Assembly (NCBI GenBank): GCA_050298055.1
Contig: JBNKTL010000016.1
Span: forward strand, 1-64,000
DNA: 64,000 bases
From: Spirochaetota bacterium
GTDB taxonomy: Bacteria; Spirochaetota; UBA4802; UBA5550
Reading direction: 5' to 3'
Part shown: positions 40,041 to 63,721 of the stretch, piece after piece
Layout: each line of letters begins with the position of its first letter
Numbering within the stretch: position 1 is the stretch's first letter
The notes under the pieces: model-generated
What the model saw: only the letters and a program-made list of their open reading frames with translations
Database searches by the model: none
Told to the model about the DNA's origin: nothing
Made by a program: the position numbers and the translations under genes

Positions 40041-40045
40041 CTCTG

Positions 40046-40117
<72 letters not shown>

Positions 40118-40122
40118 ACTAT

Positions 40123-40204
40123 TGCGAGCGAAGGGAGTCGAACCCCCACACCCGAAGGTACTAGATCCTAAGTCTAGCGTGTCTGCCAGTTCCACCACGC
40201 TCGC
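40123..40204 (-). tRNA. tRNA-Leu(TAG)
   Basis: GCGAGCGTGGTGGAACTGGCAGACACGCTAGACTTAGGATCTAG..., long variable arm, GTTCGAC T-loop. Confidence 0.96.
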
Positions 40205-49867: not shown

Positions 49868-49902
49868 AATAGGCGATGATAAAAATCATCGCCTATTTTT
49901 TT
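49868..49902 (+). terminator. Intrinsic terminator
   Basis: AATAGGCGATGAT-AAAA-ATCATCGCCTATT followed by a T tract. Confidence 0.85.
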
Positions 49903-50181
49903 GTTTGATTTTTTTATTTCATCTCTTTGGAAGGTCTGCCCTCACGATTTTGAATAAATTCATGAAAATGAATATGCACCCTCAACAAAAAGTGTTATTT
50001 TGATAATTTTTATGGACATCTAGTCCAATATACGCTATTATTTTACACACGAGTTTAATTCATCCTTTATTGATTTGTTCACTATTTTTATCATAGTATT
50101 AACTGGTTTGCATAGGGAAATCTCGAGGATCACTACACACACCCATACTATCGATAAAAAAATAAATGAAAGGAGGTTGAT

Positions 50182-51033
50182 ATGCTGTGGAATAGATGCA
50201 GGATATGTCTGATACTTGCCGTGTTTTTGCTTATGCCCTTACAGCCACAAATTGTGACGGCGGACAAGGGAAAGGTTTATTACATCGGCATCATTCCTAC
50301 CTGGCCCCCTGTAGTCACCCATACAAAATGGTCGCCGTTCGCTAAACGGCTTTCCCATGTCACCGGTCTTACCTTCCGGCTAAAAGTATACGAAAAAATG
50401 CGTGATTTTGAGCGGGACATCATTTCACCGGAGGCCCCCGATTTCATCTTCGCAAACGCCCTCCAGATCGTTGTGGCCCATAAGTTGCAGGGCTTTATCC
50501 CGCTGGTCCGGGGCGGTCCTACCGTCAAGGCAATCATCTTTGTGCGCCAGGACTCTCCCTTCAAGGTCATCGACGACCTTGCTGGCAAGCGAATCGCCTT
50601 TGTCGGAGAAAAGAACGTCTGAACCATCTTCCTCAGACACGTGTTGTCTGTGCAAAAAGGGAAATTGGCTTTCGATACGAGCTACAGCGGTTCGACGAAG
50701 AATGCGATCATACAGGTGTTGCTGGGTAAGGCAGACGCTGGAGTGACCGTCGGCCCGGCGCTCGCCAGAGAGACGAAGAATATTCCCGGCAAGCTCCGGA
50801 CTTTGCTTGAGTCGCCAGGACTCCCTTCTCATCCGCTCTGTGCTCACCCTCGTATTCCGGAGACCGTCCGGGCGTCGGTCAGGAAGGGCATATTCACCAT
50901 TGTGAAAACGCCCAAAGGTGAGGAACTCATGCGTCAGGTCAGAATGCCGGATCCGACAATCGCCAATTATAAAAGGGACTATAAATCACTGGAGAGTATT
51001 GATATAAAATTTCTGTCGAATTGGGGTAAATAA
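50182..51033 (+). CDS. PhnD/phosphonate-binding-family periplasmic substrate-binding protein with in-frame TGA (candidate selenoprotein; alternatively a nonsense pseudogene)
   Basis: AAGGAGG RBS; signal peptide; PDFIFAN, IFVRQDSP...DLAGKRIAF, VLLGKADAG, SHPL.AHPR. ORFs 50182-50622 and 50641-51033 share one frame and are separated only by TGA 50620-50622. Confidence 0.75.
50623..50650 (+). promoter_or_regulatory. Candidate bacterial SECIS element
   Basis: 11-nt spacer after TGA, then stem CAGACA/TGTCTG with loop CGTGT. Confidence 0.5.
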
Positions 51034-51063
51034 GATGTCACTGTTGTTATTCCGTTTTTATGG

Positions 51064-51133: not shown

Positions 51134-51218
51134 TGCCCAGGGCGGGACTTGAACCCGCACGCCCCGAAGAGCAAGGGATTTTAAGTCCCTTGTGTCTACC
51201 AAATTCCACCACCTGGGC
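51134..51218 (-). tRNA. tRNA-Leu(TAA)
   Basis: GCCCAGGTGGTGGAATTTGGTAGACACAAGGGACTTAAAATCCCT..., long variable arm, GTTCAAG T-loop. Confidence 0.96.
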
Positions 51219-51395
51219 TTTTATGCAGAAAACCGATCTATTGATATAAGAGGACTTCAACTGCTCACGTTTCGCGAAAAAAACTATATTTGATGCCCCC
51301 TTGTGGGCACAAATACTGATAAAACCAGTAGTGAGAATATTTGATAACCCGTTAACTACTGGTTTTGAGAGGTGCCCATAAAGACATGTGTTTAT

Positions 51396-51468
51396 AGGCG
51401 TCGAGCGGATTCGAACCGCTGAATAAAGGTTTTGCAGACCTCTCCCTTAGCCACTTGGGTACGACGCC
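51396..51468 (-). tRNA. tRNA-Cys(GCA)
   Basis: GGCGTCGTACCCAAGTGGCTAAGGGAGAGGTCTGCAAAACCT...GGTTCGAATCCGCTCGACGCCT. Confidence 0.96.
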
Positions 51469-51844: not shown

Positions 51845-52543
51845 TTGGATACTATTTTAAAAAAAGAAAGCTCTAATATCCCCAACAAAGCTGAAAAACG
51901 CAAAGAGCATATTATGAACTGTGCCGAGAAGGTCTTCGCACAGAAAGGCTACCAGGATGCAACAATATCAGATATTGCCAGGGAAGCAAAGCTATCCGAT
52001 ACAACTATTTACGAGTACTTCTCAACCAAGGAAGAACTTCTTTTTACCATCCCGGAAGCAACAACAGAGAGATTTAAGGAACTTCTCGAGTTCAACCTCA
52101 AGTCAGTCCGGGATGCGGGAAACAAAATCAGATCATTCATCTATTTCTATCTCTGGTTCTATAAAAGTCACCCGGATTATGCATCACTTTATCTCCTGAC
52201 ACTGAAGAGCAGCCGGAAATTCAGGGAAACCAGGGCCTACCAGATAATCAGGGGCGTATTCAGAAACCTGCTTACGATCATAAACCAGGGAATTGAGAGC
52301 GGTGAACTGAGAAAGGAGATCGATCCCTATCTCCTCAGGGCACAGATCCTCGGTACAATTGAACATATAGTGGTCAGGTGGCTGCTGATTGATAACTCCA
52401 AAGACCTGATGGATAATGTGGACCCGGTCTATGAGATGATCATAAATGGGGCAGGAAAGATTAACAGGTCCAGGGGACTTCGTCTCAGGGTAGAAGTTGA
52501 AGATGATGAATCTCCAGAGGGAACTGTTAAACATGATCTTTGA
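51845..52543 (+). CDS. TetR/AcrR family transcriptional regulator (FadR-like by context)
   Basis: F..KGY...TISDIA.EA.LS..TIYEYF.TKEEL HTH; upstream of beta-oxidation genes. Confidence 0.9.
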   Translation: MDTILKKESSNIPNKAEKRKEHIMNCAEKVFAQKGYQDATISDIAREAKLSDTTIYEYFSTKEELLFTIPEATTERFKELLEFNLKSVRDAGNKIRSFIYFYLWFYKSHPDYASLYLLTLKSSRKFRETRAYQIIRGVFRNLLTIINQGIESGELRKEIDPYLLRAQILGTIEHIVVRWLLIDNSKDLMDNVDPVYEMIINGAGKINRSRGLRLRVEVEDDESPEGTVKHDL

Positions 52544-52647
52544 GAATTGAAATACAAGTGGTAATCTTTGATAAGTTCGGATATTATCAGGACTACTGTT
52601 TTTGTGAAAATTATTGTATTAACCGGAATAAATATAAGGAGGCCTAA

Positions 52648-55056
52648 ATGAACAGACGAATTGAAAAAATGGCTGTAATCGGTTCGGGCATAATGGGAGG
52701 CGGAATTGCCGCCCTTTGCGCATCAGCCGGTATCAAGACAATACTTCTTGATATCGTTCCCTTCGACCTGAAGGATGAAGAAAAGGATGATCCTGCAGCA
52801 CGAAACAGAATAGTAAATGCCGGTCTTGAAGGCGTTATCAAATCAAAACCGCCGCTTCTGATGGATAAGTCTCATGATCTTGAGTTCCTCAGTACGGGTA
52901 ATCTTGATGATAACCTTAAGGAACTTGAAGATTGTGACTGGATCGTGGAAGTTGTTGTAGAAAACCTGAAAATCAAACAGGAATTGTTCAAGAAGATAGA
53001 AAAAGTCAGAAAACCGGGATCAATTCTTTCTACAAATACATCGGGACTTCCCCTCCATCTTATTTCTGAAAAGTTCAGCAAAGAGATGAAAGAGCATTTT
53101 ATCGGAACACACTTTTTTAACCCCGTGAGATATATGCACCTTCTTGAGATCATTCCCGGCAAGGAAACAAAAAAGGATATTGTTCAGTTCATGGGACAGT
53201 TTGGCGAGAAGATCCTTGGCAAGGGGATTGTCTGGGCAAAGGATACACCGAACTTTATCGGGAACAGGATCGGTATTCAGTCCATGGTCTACACAATGCA
53301 GGTGATGATGGAGATGAGCATAAGTATACCGGAAGTTGATGCTGTGTTCGGCTCCCCTATGGGAAGACCCAAGACGGCTGCATTCAAGACAGCTGACCTT
53401 GTGGGACTTGATACGTTTTTACATGTTGCTGATAACTGCTATGAACTCTGTCCCGATGATAAAATGAGGGATATGCTCAAGATACCCCAGTTTGTCAAAG
53501 ATATGGTCGAGAAAAAGTTACTGGGCAACAAGACACAGGGCGGTTTCTACAAGAAGGAGATAACACCTGAGTGGAAGACCCTGAGGAAGGTCATGGACTA
53601 TAAGACCATGGAATATATTGATCTCGAAAGACCTAATATACCGGTACTCAACGATGCAAAAAAGAAAGAAACTCTGCCGGAGAAAATGAAGACCATTATT
53701 TACGGTGAAGATAAAATCTCCCAATTTGCCTGGAAAGTTATAGCAGGCTGCCTCCTCTACTCTGCCAGTATGATCCCTGAAATTTCCGATACTGTGGTTG
53801 AAATTGACAACGCGATGAAGTGGGGATACAACTGGGAATTGGGCCCCTTTGAGACCTGGGACGCCCTGGGTCTTAAAGAATCTGTGAAGAAGATGGAGAA
53901 GGAGGGGATGAAAATTCCCGCAAATATAAAGAAGATGCTCGATGATAAGATCAGCAGCTTCTACAAGATCACCAAAGGTGAGAAACAGTATTACGATTTC
54001 AAATCAAAGAGTTACAAGAATATTGAAACAAGTGACAACGCTATCACCCTTGCTAACCTCAAGGCTCATAAGAAGACAGTTTTTTCCAATCCGTCATGTT
54101 CTCTTATTGATATTGGAGACGGAGTTTTCAATATTGAGTTTCACTCTAAGATGAATTCCCTGAACCAGGGAATCGTTGAAATGATAGCGAAATCTTTTGA
54201 TTATGTGACAGATAACGGGATAGGTGTTGTCTACGGCAACCAGGCCCCCGGTATGCCGGGAGCATTTTCCGCAGGAGCAGACCTCAACCTTGTACTGGCT
54301 GCGGCAAAGGAAAAGAAGTGGGACGATGTTGACAGGATGATAGCGGAAGGACAAAAACTGATTCCAACTGCAAAATACAGGCCATTTCCTGTTGTTGCGG
54401 CTCCCTACGGACTTGTCCTTGGAGGTGGCTGCGAAATTTGCCTCGGCTCCGATAGGATTGTTGCACACCACGACCTTTTCATGGGACTTGTTGAGATAGG
54501 CGCAGGTCTTCTTCCCGGCTGGGGCGGAATTAGCGGTCTCTGGAGAAAATTCATTGAGAACAAACCGGGTATAGTGGAAATAAGCGACTATGGCGCATAC
54601 TATGTTCCGGCAATGATGAATATTGCCCAGGCAAAGGTCTCATCCTCTGCTGCAGATGCACGGAGAAACGGGTTCCTGGGCCCCAGGGACAGGATTGTAT
54701 TCAACAAAGATCACCTCATCGGCGAGGCAAAGAAGGAAGTCCTTCGAATGGTAGAAGACGGGTATACGCCTCCTGCCAGGACAAAGATTCCGGTAATGGG
54801 AAGAGATGCCATGGGCATGGTCTATGCCAACATGCTTAATATGAGAGAGGGCGGATACGTGACTCCTCATATGAGTGAAATAGCCCTTAAGATAGCCTAT
54901 GTTATGTCCGGCGGTGATGTCAGCCAGGGAACTCTGATAGATGACGAAGAGATGATGAAAATGGAAAGAGAGACATTCGTTGAACTGATTAAAACAGAGA
55001 ACTCACAGAAAATGGCTGAGCATATAGTTACTACCGGAAAACCTTTGTTTATATAA
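52648..55056 (+). CDS. 3-hydroxyacyl-CoA dehydrogenase / enoyl-CoA hydratase fusion (FadN-like)
   Basis: GSGIMGGGIA, VEVVVENL..K, TNTSG, HFFNPVRYM, FSAGADL, LGGGCE, GLVE.GAGL. Confidence 0.92.
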   Translation: MNRRIEKMAVIGSGIMGGGIAALCASAGIKTILLDIVPFDLKDEEKDDPAARNRIVNAGLEGVIKSKPPLLMDKSHDLEFLSTGNLDDNLKELEDCDWIVEVVVENLKIKQELFKKIEKVRKPGSILSTNTSGLPLHLISEKFSKEMKEHFIGTHFFNPVRYMHLLEIIPGKETKKDIVQFMGQFGEKILGKGIVWAKDTPNFIGNRIGIQSMVYTMQVMMEMSISIPEVDAVFGSPMGRPKTAAFKTADLVGLDTFLHVADNCYELCPDDKMRDMLKIPQFVKDMVEKKLLGNKTQGGFYKKEITPEWKTLRKVMDYKTMEYIDLERPNIPVLNDAKKKETLPEKMKTIIYGEDKISQFAWKVIAGCLLYSASMIPEISDTVVEIDNAMKWGYNWELGPFETWDALGLKESVKKMEKEGMKIPANIKKMLDDKISSFYKITKGEKQYYDFKSKSYKNIETSDNAITLANLKAHKKTVFSNPSCSLIDIGDGVFNIEFHSKMNSLNQGIVEMIAKSFDYVTDNGIGVVYGNQAPGMPGAFSAGADLNLVLAAAKEKKWDDVDRMIAEGQKLIPTAKYRPFPVVAAPYGLVLGGGCEICLGSDRIVAHHDLFMGLVEIGAGLLPGWGGISGLWRKFIENKPGIVEISDYGAYYVPAMMNIAQAKVSSSAADARRNGFLGPRDRIVFNKDHLIGEAKKEVLRMVEDGYTPPARTKIPVMGRDAMGMVYANMLNMREGGYVTPHMSEIALKIAYVMSGGDVSQGTLIDDEEMMKMERETFVELIKTENSQKMAEHIVTTGKPLFI

Positions 55057-55106
55057 AAAGGAAAACGGAAAATGAGAATGAGAATTACAGAACAGGAGGC
55101 AATTAG

Positions 55107-56300
55107 ATGAGAGATGCATATATAGTTTCAGCAGTACGAACACCGGGCTGCAGAAGAAAAAAGGGCGCCCTGGCACAGACCAGGCCCGAAGACCTCATAT
55201 CCTTCATACTTGGTGCTGCTGTTGACAAAGTTGAAGGACTTGAGAAGAAAGATGTGGAAGACATTATGATCGGCTGCGCTTTCCCCGAGGCAGAACAGGG
55301 CCTCAACATTGGAAGGATAGCCCCGCTCATGGCAGGTTTTCCTGACACAGTAACAGGAGCCACCGTGAACAGGTTCTGTTCTTCAGGACTGGAATCAATA
55401 GCCCTCTCTTCACTCAGGGTTATGAGCGGTTGGTCTGAAGTCACCATGGCGGGAGGAGTTGAATCCATGTCTAAAGTTCCCATGGGAGGAAACCTGCCCA
55501 GGCCTCACCCGGGCATGGGAAAGGACAATCCTGATGTCTACATATCCATGGGGGTTACTGCTGAAAATGTCGCGAAGCGCTACAATGTTTCCCGGGAACA
55601 ACAGGATGAGTTTGCCTATAATTCGCAGATGAAGGCGGCAGAAGCCCAGAAGAATGGTCTTTTTACCGAGATTGTACCAACTCCGGCCACCCGGTTTGGG
55701 AAAAACGGCTCTGAAACATTCCTGCAGGATTTTGATGATGGTGTACGTGATTCCACAACTGTAGAAGGGCTTGCAAAACTGAGGCCGGCATTCTCAACTA
55801 CCGGATCAGTAACAGCGGGAAATTCTTCCCAGACCACTGACGGTGCAGCTGCGGTTGTTATTATGAGCGAAGATGCCCTGAAAAAATTTGGCGTTAAACC
55901 CATCGCAAAGTTCAGGTACTATACAACCGCAGGATGCAGGCCGGATGAGATGGGTATTGGACCGGCACTGGCTGTTCCCAAACTCCTTAAGATGGCAGGT
56001 CTCAGTATAGATGACATTGGGCTCTGGGAGATAAATGAAGCTTTTGCATCACAGGCCATATACTCTGCAAATCAGATCGGGATAGGAGACAAGAAACTCT
56101 GGGCTTTTGACAGCCCTGATAAAAAGCTCAACATTAATGGCGGAGCAATCGCCCTGGGACACCCCCTTGGATGTACCGGCGCAAAACTTGCATCCACTCT
56201 CCTTGCTAACATGAAACGACTCGGCGTTAAATACGGTGTCGAATCCATGTGTATTGGCGGAGGAATGGGTGCAGCCGGATTATTTGAGCTGATAGATTAG
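55107..56300 (+). CDS. fadA: Acetyl-CoA C-acyltransferase (thiolase)
   Basis: NRFCSSG, GGVESMS, EINEAFA, GGAIALGHPLG, MCIGGGMG. Confidence 0.93.
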   Translation: MRDAYIVSAVRTPGCRRKKGALAQTRPEDLISFILGAAVDKVEGLEKKDVEDIMIGCAFPEAEQGLNIGRIAPLMAGFPDTVTGATVNRFCSSGLESIALSSLRVMSGWSEVTMAGGVESMSKVPMGGNLPRPHPGMGKDNPDVYISMGVTAENVAKRYNVSREQQDEFAYNSQMKAAEAQKNGLFTEIVPTPATRFGKNGSETFLQDFDDGVRDSTTVEGLAKLRPAFSTTGSVTAGNSSQTTDGAAAVVIMSEDALKKFGVKPIAKFRYYTTAGCRPDEMGIGPALAVPKLLKMAGLSIDDIGLWEINEAFASQAIYSANQIGIGDKKLWAFDSPDKKLNINGGAIALGHPLGCTGAKLASTLLANMKRLGVKYGVESMCIGGGMGAAGLFELID

Positions 56301-61318: not shown

Positions 61319-63721
61319 ATGCTTAATAATCTTGACAACAAAACGATAATTGGCGGAGGAATCGGGATAATCCTGCTCCTCCTTCTTTCAGGTTATTTTT
61401 TCTTCGGTTCGGGAGATAAGCTGTCTGATATTGAAGACAAGCGGATGAAACAGATTGAACTCTATACCGAACTCCTTGAGACGGATCCTTCAAATATTGA
61501 TACCCTCATAAAACTCGGGAACCTCTATAAGTCAATCGGTGAACTTGACCGCGCCATTGATCTCTATAAAAAGGCCCTGAAGAATGATCCCGGGAACTAC
61601 GATGTACTCAATGAACTGGGCCATGCCTACGCCCTTGCCGGTGACTATGAAAATGCAATAAAAACATTCAGGCTTGCCCAAAAGTCCAAACCGAAATATC
61701 CGAAAGCATACAACAGGCTGGGAAATGTATTTGATGATCAGGAAAAGCACCGTAAAGCTTTAAAAGAATATGTTTCCGCCCGCAGGGTTGATCCGTCAGA
61801 TCCCGACAGCTACAGAAACATCGCCCGTCAGAAATTCAGGAGGGGTGATGTTAACGGGGCCATCTCTACCATTAAACGCGGGATAAGGGCAAATCCCCGG
61901 GAAGCGGAAGGATATTACAACCTGGGAAATATCTACTACGATCTTAATAAGTACAAGGATGCTGAAAAATATCACAGAAAGGCCATTGCCCTGAATCCAA
62001 ACAGGGCCAGGTATCACCGCGGCCTCGGGGAAGACCTCATCAGGCAGGGAAGAGACACCGAATCCATCAATGCCTTTAATAGGGCCGTTGCCTTAAACCC
62101 TGCCGACGCGAAGGCATCAGAGAGAATCGGTGACATCTATGGGAAAAACAGAGATTACAGGAATGCGGCGGACAACTACAGGCGCGCGCTCCAGTATAAC
62201 AGCAGAGACAAGAACCTCAGGAGAAAATACCTTGCCGCACTGAGCAAGCTGGGTGATGCCCGCAAAATCGCAGGTAACGGAGGAAGAGGTGATTCCGGGG
62301 ACAGGGGAGATTCCGGAACAGGGAGAGGTACGGGAACAGGAAGAGATACCGGTGTTGCCGATACCGGCATGCAGGACACCGGAAGCGATATCTCCGACAC
62401 AGGTACGGGAACTGCACCCCGGAAGGGCAAGGACCTGAAGAAGGAAGCTCTCAAGTGGAGAGAGATCGGTGACAAGAGGAGACGCAGCAAGGAGTACAAG
62501 GACGCTATAAGCGCATACAGAAACGCCGTAGATGCCGACAAGAACGATGACTATTCACACTACTGGCTGGGCAGGCTCTATATGCACAGCAGGATGAACG
62601 ATGAAGCCAAGGAGTCTTTTCATAATGCGGTTATTGCAAATCCAAAGAATGCGGATGCTCACTACAGGCTGGGACTCATATATTATATGGAGAAAAAATA
62701 CAGTGCTGCCATAAAGTCATTCAGCAAGGCCATTCACATGAAGCCGGACTTTCCCAAGGCCTATTATTCCCGGGGACTTTCTTACTACAAGCTTAATGAC
62801 AGGGCAAGCGCCATCAAGAACCTGAAAAAATCCATACAGCAGGATTCAAAGCTTGACAGGGCATATTTCAACCTGGGCAATATCTACCTCAAGAGCAAGA
62901 ACTACAGTGAAGCCATGAGATACTTTTCCAAAGACAGGGAACTTCGCCCCAACAATCCCGATACAAATTTCAAGGTTGCGGAAACCTATCATGAGATGAA
63001 GTCATTTAACAATGCAGTACAGTTTTACCAGAAAACAATCAGCCTTGACCCGCAGTATCACCAGGCATATTTCAACCTCGCTCTCATCAAACATAAGAGA
63101 AAACATTATGCCGAAGCAATACAGCTCTTTAAAAAATCCGCATCGATCAAAGGCAACGATTATGCATCCTATTATGAAATTGGAAAGGCATATGAGGGAG
63201 CCGGAGATGACAACAACGCAATTGAAAACTACAACAAGGCGATATCACTCAACCCAAACTACACCAAGGCATATATAAACCTGGGCGAACTCTATGCAAA
63301 GAACAAACTTTATGACAAAGCCATGCAGCTTTACCGGAATGCGACACTGAACAATCCGAAGTCTTTCATTGCCCATTTCAACCTTGCGAACGCATACAGG
63401 GAATCGAAGATGTACGACGATGCCATAGAGGAATACAAGACATGCATAAACCTTAAACCTATTGACTACAAGTCCCACTTCTTCCTCGGCATGGCATACC
63501 GGGACAAGGGGAACTACACTGATGCCGTTAAATCTTTTGAGAGGTCCGCAAGCCTGAACAGAGGACTTGCCGATGCCCACGAAGAACTGGGGATGATCTA
63601 TTACAGAAAGCTGAAAAATAATCAGAAAGCGGTTGAGCATTTCAAGAAGCTTCTTTCCCTGGAACCCAATCATCCCAAGGCGGACAATATCCAGAACATC
63701 ATTAACATGCTTCAGAAGTAA
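61319..63721 (+). CDS. Large membrane-anchored TPR protein with central Gly/Thr/Asp linker
   Basis: GGAGGAG RBS; N-terminal TM; many AY.NLG..Y...A...Y.KAI..NP repeats in two blocks. Confidence 0.9.
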   Translation: MLNNLDNKTIIGGGIGIILLLLLSGYFFFGSGDKLSDIEDKRMKQIELYTELLETDPSNIDTLIKLGNLYKSIGELDRAIDLYKKALKNDPGNYDVLNELGHAYALAGDYENAIKTFRLAQKSKPKYPKAYNRLGNVFDDQEKHRKALKEYVSARRVDPSDPDSYRNIARQKFRRGDVNGAISTIKRGIRANPREAEGYYNLGNIYYDLNKYKDAEKYHRKAIALNPNRARYHRGLGEDLIRQGRDTESINAFNRAVALNPADAKASERIGDIYGKNRDYRNAADNYRRALQYNSRDKNLRRKYLAALSKLGDARKIAGNGGRGDSGDRGDSGTGRGTGTGRDTGVADTGMQDTGSDISDTGTGTAPRKGKDLKKEALKWREIGDKRRRSKEYKDAISAYRNAVDADKNDDYSHYWLGRLYMHSRMNDEAKESFHNAVIANPKNADAHYRLGLIYYMEKKYSAAIKSFSKAIHMKPDFPKAYYSRGLSYYKLNDRASAIKNLKKSIQQDSKLDRAYFNLGNIYLKSKNYSEAMRYFSKDRELRPNNPDTNFKVAETYHEMKSFNNAVQFYQKTISLDPQYHQAYFNLALIKHKRKHYAEAIQLFKKSASIKGNDYASYYEIGKAYEGAGDDNNAIENYNKAISLNPNYTKAYINLGELYAKNKLYDKAMQLYRNATLNNPKSFIAHFNLANAYRESKMYDDAIEEYKTCINLKPIDYKSHFFLGMAYRDKGNYTDAVKSFERSASLNRGLADAHEELGMIYYRKLKNNQKAVEHFKKLLSLEPNHPKADNIQNIINMLQK

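Follow-up and report, generated by a model that had tools for sequence, protein, structure and literature searches.

A candidate selenoprotein family of periplasmic binding proteins coupled to membrane sensors

The locus described here raises the question whether an in-frame UGA truncates a periplasmic binding protein or encodes selenocysteine (Sec) in it, and what such a protein would do. It lies in the window, a stretch of 64,000 nucleotides (contig JBNKTL010000016.1, positions 1 to 64,000) from a Spirochaetota bacterium, whose genome (G000) is called the host genome below. The original prediction read two open reading frames of the window as one gene with a Sec codon and guessed at a sensory role.

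The UGA codon and its hairpin

The frame was re-read, and the two open reading frames are indeed one plus-strand frame of 283 codons and a TAA, with codon 147 as its sole internal stop in the context RIAFVGEKNV-U-TIFLRHVLS (Table 1). The strong ribosome-binding site and the signal peptide claimed for it are also there, the latter as judged from a look at the sequence rather than by a predictor. No ABC permease or ATPase gene is adjacent, as had been stated: an uncharacterised ORF and a terminator lie upstream and tRNA-Leu and tRNA-Cys genes downstream.

Table 1. Features of the window gene, its flanks and related genes of the host genome
Feature	Position	Strand	Basis or remark
Terminator-like hairpin closing the upstream gene	49868-49897	+	Consensus match only; separates the gene from upstream transcription
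Sigma-70-like promoter match, 10/12	50013-50041	+	Chance level: 1 found vs 2.4 expected
Shine-Dalgarno AGGAGG	50171-50176	+	5 nt before ATG; from sequence
Gene, 283-aa type II periplasmic binding protein (PF12974), one UGA probably read as Sec	50182-51033	+	PF12974 E 7.8e-39; pLDDT 92; dN/dS
Probable signal peptide, residues 1-27	50182-50262	+	By inspection; model helix 2-17
Met73, cleft position of PhnD Tyr47/AioX Tyr88	50398-50400	+	Cys/Sec-subfamily specific; profile alignment
In-frame UGA, putative Sec147	50620-50622	+	N-terminus of helix 146-157, S-T-S ligand loop; comparative evidence
Bacterial SECIS upper stem-loop, 6 bp	50634-50650	+	Loop 50640-50644; G50641-U50642 are positions 22-23
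His217, conserved hinge/cap position, possible co-ligand	50830-50832	+	Pro in some close relatives
Putative remnant of the cognate sensor-kinase start, ~9 codons, then degenerate	51035-51061	+	1 nt past the stop as in intact loci; compared with L014, L015, L027
tRNA-Leu(TAA), possible integration site	51134-51218	-	3' end 100 nt from the gene stop
Second UGA paralogue, 55% identical	G000:C67:12530-15550 (L017, L096)		Same SECIS; followed by an intact PAS histidine kinase gene, truncated at the contig end
selD with in-frame UGA and SECIS-like hairpin	G000:C39:25483-26403
Two formate-dehydrogenase-like genes with in-frame UGA and SECIS-like hairpins	G000:C22:6478-7737, C22:27190-28827		C-x-x-x-U-H type context

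Minus-strand tRNA genes come in pairs in the window, Gly/Leu(TAG) at 40045-40204 and Leu(TAA)/Cys at 51134-51468. Beyond the second pair, a TetR regulator is followed by 3-hydroxyacyl-CoA dehydrogenase/thiolase-like genes (51845-56300), by eye a fatty-acid oxidation cluster. The frame at 61319-63721 encodes a TPR-like protein of 800 aa into which a low-complexity stretch rich in Gly, Thr and Asp is inserted.

The simplest way to dismiss the codon is as a nonsense mutation or an assembly error in a pseudogene. As a check on sequencing error, the codon was found to be spanned by contigs of two sequencing runs, both identical to the window; these runs are possibly the source of the window DNA, so an assembly slip is excluded but the confirmation is not independent. 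Two further runs, X3 and X4, leave the codon uncovered. Purifying selection acts on both halves of the gene, including the C-terminal half past the UGA. Pairwise dN/dS, which averages over both lineages compared, is 0.13-0.20 before the UGA and 0.19-0.37 after it, and the latter speaks against a pseudogene.

Two other checks had been proposed, Cys in homologues and TGA in several genomes, and both came out in favour of Sec. At the column of codon 147, 85 full-length homologues have Cys in 76 cases, Ala in 7 and Ser in 1, and one protein stops just before it; Trp never occurs. The same TGA is present in 13 DNA copies, counting that of the window, and these fall into two separate clades. The other 12 are the 55%-identical paralogue on contig C67 of the host genome, a copy in a Desulfobacter MAG (L015), three on metagenome contigs and 7 of the 30 loci in the G371 family, where the gene is found in 25 of 124 genomes. 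A nonsense mutation or an error would hardly recur at a Cys column in this manner.

The metagenome copies come from a pattern scan with 14 loci, 11 of which were dropped as chance matches and 3 of which are true homologues. A scan of the genome collection gave 2 loci. A search with the N-terminal half returned 45 proteins, and 43 of them are only 93-147 aa long and end at residue 146, just before the Cys column, as placed by a strict regular expression (35), by hmmalign (41) and, for the remainder, by eye. They share 50-95% pairwise identity, and two are the host genome's own. The stop codon behind them is TGA by DNA in 4 of the 43 and presumably so in the other 39.

The hairpin had been predicted to begin 11 nt after the UGA, and it does. 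After the spacer (50623-50633), CAGACA-CGTGT-TGTCTG forms a stem of 6 bp capped by the 5-nt loop CGUGU. With the U of UGA numbered as position 1, a stem at 15-20/26-31 together with loop G-U at 22-23 is kept in 13/13 TGA copies versus 0/23 Cys copies (37 loci submitted, L073 not parsed). In the genome background, this register with the loop G-U accompanies 34 of 200,902 TGA trinucleotides. The 13 versus 0 are not 13 independent events because the TGA copies are related, with few independent events behind the contrast, and the SECIS codons fix the residues R-H/Q-V-L-S.

In the 13-row alignment, 95.6% of cells are paired versus 27-51% in slid controls, and double, compensatory changes occur in two of the pairs: C-G/G-C between clades and A-U/C-G in L072. 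The SelD gene and the two formate-dehydrogenase-like selenogenes of the host have their loop G at positions 21-23. An Rfam scan gave no family over the hairpin.

The hairpin is thermodynamically weak, a point for the pseudogene. Its folding energy is unremarkable, with z of -1.2 (27 nt), -2.05 (48 nt) and 0.09 (101 nt). The published bacterial SECIS consensus defines loop, stem, G position and spacing, with the loop G 16-37 nt after the UGA (PMC13188914, as given in the legend of its Fig. 2A). The window hairpin agrees with that legend's consensus in having a stem of 6 bp and a loop of 5 nt with G-U at its second and third positions, in the 17 nt that separate the loop from the UGA and in an MFE of -13.9 for the 48-nt fold. 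It is unlike the consensus in the unpaired first and last loop bases (C, U) and in the -6.2 kcal/mol of the 27-nt hairpin, weaker than the -7.5 limit.

The pseudogene reading can further draw on the foreign DNA beside the tRNA and on the lost kinase partner of the window copy. Against it stand the recurrence of the TGA, the confinement of the SECIS to TGA copies, the dN/dS and the agreeing contigs. The reading is largely refuted and scarcely credible to us.

Decoding machinery and origin of the gene

A further check suggested at the start was for the Sec machinery, and the host genome has all of selA, selB, selC and selD. The genes of SelA, SelB and tRNA-Sec(UCA) are together on contig C5, and selD itself contains a UGA. 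From the sequence comparisons, the UGA of the window gene is almost certainly decoded as Sec by this machinery, guided by the adjacent SECIS. The codon, the Cys/Sec column, the conserved SECIS, the machinery, the sensor coupling and the fold are observations, and from these we infer that selenium enters the protein.

Another route would be decoding of the UGA as Cys or Trp. In the host genome, a tRNA of 90 nt combines a GCA (Cys) anticodon with a tRNA-Sec shape (G000:C17:82993-83082, L105:393-482; 61 bits with Rfam tRNA-Sec), and we take it to resemble selC*/tRNA-Cys variants. However, a GCA anticodon decodes UGC/UGU and not UGA, the host has a normal tRNA-Sec(UCA) and SelB, the SECIS matches the host's own selenogenes and the column is never Trp. 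Such a route is as hard to credit as the pseudogene. Read by eye, the genes that closely follow the GCA tRNA are for a 2-hydroxyacyl-CoA dehydratase-like protein and its activator.

In favour of Sec decoding, G061 has the TGA form and selA; in G062, selA was not found, and its 76%-identical copy has TGT and no hairpin. In the G371 family, selA and selB are present in 6 of the 7 TGA genomes, and neither was found in G949 (1.5 Mb, TGA form). Among the Cys-form genomes there, 16/18 have selA and 17/18 selB. Since most of them carry the machinery, it does not predict the Sec or the Cys form in this family. A second selA copy with one internal TGA is at G943:C2:196612-197937.

At least four U/C changes are required on a quick tree built from 71 rows, for which L029 was omitted and both the codon and the residues encoded by the SECIS were masked. 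In it, the Sec forms make up two distant groups, and the Cys forms L014 and P0003 share a starred clade with the window copy. Their placement fits a reversion from Sec to Cys, a direction suggested by the tree. In the wider family, the column is Ala or Gly in 107 of 149 rows, and those forms are also coupled to sensors. For the Ala-type L043 (G319:C1:1124825-1125637), a TAA is listed inside the match, yet the 275-aa ORF is intact with the stop at the match edge.

The family is thinly spread in the genomes sampled. Members were found in 6/401 genomes of G061's phylum (1e-45; 4 Ala-type), 1/401 of its class and 1/251 of the order of G062, and the 1/401 in the host's phylum is the host itself. 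Three FlaA matches in its genome mark the host as a spirochaete. Named hosts of the family include Desulfobacter, Desulfobulbaceae, Desulfuromonadales, Geobacter, Nitrospirae and Sedimenticolaceae. At the DNA level, the window gene shares 82% identity with copies from Desulfobacter and Sedimenticolaceae, and its GC content is 51% versus 44% for the host genome. With the nearness of tRNA-Leu and the rarity in the phylum, horizontal acquisition is the simplest reading.

Ligand cleft, partner sensor and signalling

The predicted model of the read-through protein has a pLDDT of 92, and U147 opens helix 146-157. Its top fold matches are XAC2383, ArrX, HtxB and PtxB at Z ~24, and an ESM Atlas search gave PF12974 clusters only. 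In profile alignments with ArrX and two PtxB proteins, U147 falls on residue 3 of the S-x-S ligand loop; with PhnD, the match is one residue earlier. In AioX, Ser161 and Ser163 of this loop bind arsenite and phosphate, according to the accessible part of PMC5908839.

The rest of the pocket is altered. The AioX residues Y88, C106, Y131, S161, S163, H192 and D210 align to M73, N92, V115, N145, U147, T172 and G191 here. The window protein is neither a PhnD nor an AioX, since the other pocket residues of both are lost. Met73 is found in 43/43 truncated forms and 68/79 Cys forms; the Ala-type relatives have Ile in 39/54, with Met outside their four commonest residues. His217 is shared by 77/79 Cys forms, 11/13 Sec forms and 52/54 Ala-type proteins.

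The family alignment has no second conserved Cys. Cys220 was considered as an intramolecular resolving residue and set aside, as it is Cys in 5/79 Cys forms and 5/13 Sec forms.

Of 37 Cys/Sec loci, 36 have as their next gene, usually 1-5 nt past the stop, one for a homologous two-TM sensor with a periplasmic domain of ~130 residues. As these very genes went into the sensor profile, the count speaks for homology and adjacency but not for function. Among nine downstream sensor genes scanned for domains, six have histidine-kinase domains and three are PAS-only inside kinase clusters. The guess of a sensory role is strengthened by this coupling. The Cys/Sec family is very probably the first component of a three-part signalling system acting on the neighbouring sensor, as argued from the gene coupling and the AioX-AioS precedent. 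For the latter, a closed AioX acting on the periplasmic domain of AioS is a proposed model (PMC8050422, accessible part).

Alternatively, the protein is indeed a selenoprotein but, in the manner of SaoB, binds the substrate for an ABC importer of phosphonate, selenate or a metal whose other subunits are encoded elsewhere. PF12974 is the family of the PhnD transporter, the database names read 'phosphonate ABC transporter' and some relatives are weakly similar to TIGR04553. Against this, the PhnD models score far below their cut-offs (TIGR03431, 47.9 vs 261.1 bits; TIGR01098, 52.3 vs 112.05), the PhnD pocket residues are lost and the gene directly downstream in the 36 loci is for a sensor, not a permease. 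An importer subunit is quite improbable. The 73 of 205 neighbouring ORFs scanned include no cognate permease, no arsenic, sulfur or metal-resistance target gene, no recognised aio/arx/arr molybdoenzyme gene and no gene that names the ligand; a formate-dehydrogenase-like molybdoenzyme is encoded ~6 kb from the G061 copy.

A signalling receptor remains the reading we favour: the whole is probably explained by a Sec-bearing exported protein for a soft ligand in three-component signalling. The product would be exported and two-lobed, with Sec147 at the N-terminus of a cleft-lining helix, where PhnD, PtxB and AioX have S-T-S. The helix-capped selenolate would capture the ligand in the cleft and the lobes would close. 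The closed form would then contact the periplasmic domain of its two-TM sensor, the product of the adjacent gene and usually a PAS/hybrid histidine kinase. Sec instead of Cys would raise sensitivity and reversibility.

A predicted complex of the Cys-form binding protein L014 with the periplasmic domain of its sensor scored 0.02 and 0.29, under the threshold of 0.32, and carries no weight here. The frequent Cys near residue 58 of the periplasmic domain prompted the idea of a Sec-Cys bridge to the kinase, which was dropped since many partners, among them the one on C67, have Ser, Ala or Leu at that place. Longer, fused forms were also sought; the sole find was a distant protein of 527 aa, and no close relative fused to a kinase turned up, which is weak evidence.

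The ligand is most likely a soft electrophile bound covalently or coordinately, since the oxyanion-binding His and Tyr are gone, one helix-capped thiolate or selenolate is left and no second Cys is conserved. Sulfane sulfur, polysulfide or tetrathionate, held as a persulfide-like adduct in the anion cradle of the loop, is our tentative first choice, given that the PF12974 domains of TtrS and ThsS sense tetrathionate and thiosulfate and given the named host taxa. A thiophilic metal or metalloid such as As(III), Hg(II) or Cu(I), with Met73 and His217 as helpers, may be considered next. An ordinary non-covalent ligand seems rather unlikely and an oxidant improbable.

The window copy is the one among the 37 without an intact sensor, as the stretch after its stop looks like a kinase-gene remnant. 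The only cognate sensor domain in the host genome is on C67, beside the paralogue. There is an even chance that the window copy, its own kinase apparently lost, signals through that one. The family may instead be a Sec/Cys sensor with the window copy as an orphan relic, translated and no longer signalling. A kinase reduced to ~9 codons suits a relic, and with a paralogue only 55% identical, cross-talk with the C67 kinase is not assured. On the other side, decay has reached the flanking DNA but not the frame, ribosome-binding site, signal peptide or SECIS, and the dN/dS is low, though averaged over both lineages. A relic is a real possibility somewhat short of even.

Relation to known proteins and selenoproteins

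The AioX/ArxX/ArrX group is alike in many respects (PMC5908839, accessible part): the PF12974 fold, export, sensing rather than transport, a cleft thiol and a membrane histidine kinase encoded next door, the last found for the family and not for the window copy. ArrX is also the top sequence match of the window protein and a tied top fold match. The differences are that Cys106 of AioX is on the other lobe, whereas U147 is in the Ser161-x-Ser163 loop; that Tyr88, Tyr131 and His192 are replaced here; that no arsenic oxidoreductase gene was seen beside this system in the scanned ORFs; and that no Sec form is mentioned in the accessible part of that paper.

PhnD, PtxB and HtxB have the same fold (Z 19-24) and the same position of the ligand loop. 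Here, by contrast, there is no permease or ATPase gene, S-T-S has become N-V-U, the pocket His and Tyr are lost and the scores are below the NCBIfam cut-offs. The top fold match, XAC2383 of Xanthomonas citri, superposes with Z 24.3 and an rmsd of 2.6 over 249 residues. It is only 13% identical, and the PDB titles have it bound to ATP or chloride. Presumably it is the receptor for a neighbouring diguanylate cyclase.

TtrS and ThsS, the sensor kinases for tetrathionate and thiosulfate, likewise use a PF12974-type domain to sense sulfur oxyanions for a two-component system (PMC5408782, accessible part). Their domain is fused to the kinase, whereas it is a separate protein here. SaoB and SaoX share Sec in the cleft of a substrate-binding-protein fold and truncated database proteins with our family (bioRxiv 2022.07.06.499078, accessible part). 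Unlike the single, sensor-coupled Sec here, theirs are CU/CC multi-thiol proteins of a clostridial ABC importer operon, and their families, NF040727 and NF040735, give no match here at E<=0.01.

No PF12974 family is in the 119-entry inventory table of a 2026 selenoprotein review (PMC13188914), and its accessible text is without 'sensor', 'histidine kinase' and 'signal transduction'. The families of Haft and Tolstoy 2025 were compared via that table only. PF12974 families are also absent from Table 3 of deep-Sep (PMC12013277, accessible part), from the text and one possibly incomplete supplement of BSepDB (PMC13326102) and from the text of SelCysML (PMC13745706). NCBIfam of June 2026 has no model for the family, and a full-text literature search, with subscription papers outside its scope, found no report of it.

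We regard the selenoprotein family as real and apparently unpublished; comparative evidence supports Sec strongly, and the gene context lends the sensory role good support. The prokaryotic selenoproteins listed so far are mostly redox enzymes and a few transporter subunits (PMC13188914, accessible part), and this family extends Sec to signal input rather than catalysis or transport. We consider it an even proposition that a widespread unannotated family uses a periplasmic selenolate to capture sulfane sulfur or a soft metal(loid) and so switches a histidine kinase, with Sec and Cys exchanged at least four times and the module crossing phyla. In that case, the family would be the first among selenoproteins to specialise in the input of two-component systems.

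At least 40 database clusters, now 134-147-aa 'phosphonate ABC transporter' fragments, are corrected by the read-through. What selenium contributes to a receptor can be tested on natural Sec/Cys pairs from a single syntenic locus (G941, G946, G960 and G954 versus G943, G951 and G371), and the ligand of a soluble protein is directly findable. The syntenic locus of L080-L083, L087, L092 and L095, with Sec or Cys depending on the species, consists of genes for a CheR-fused hybrid kinase, the binding protein, the kinase, a single-domain receiver and ETF.
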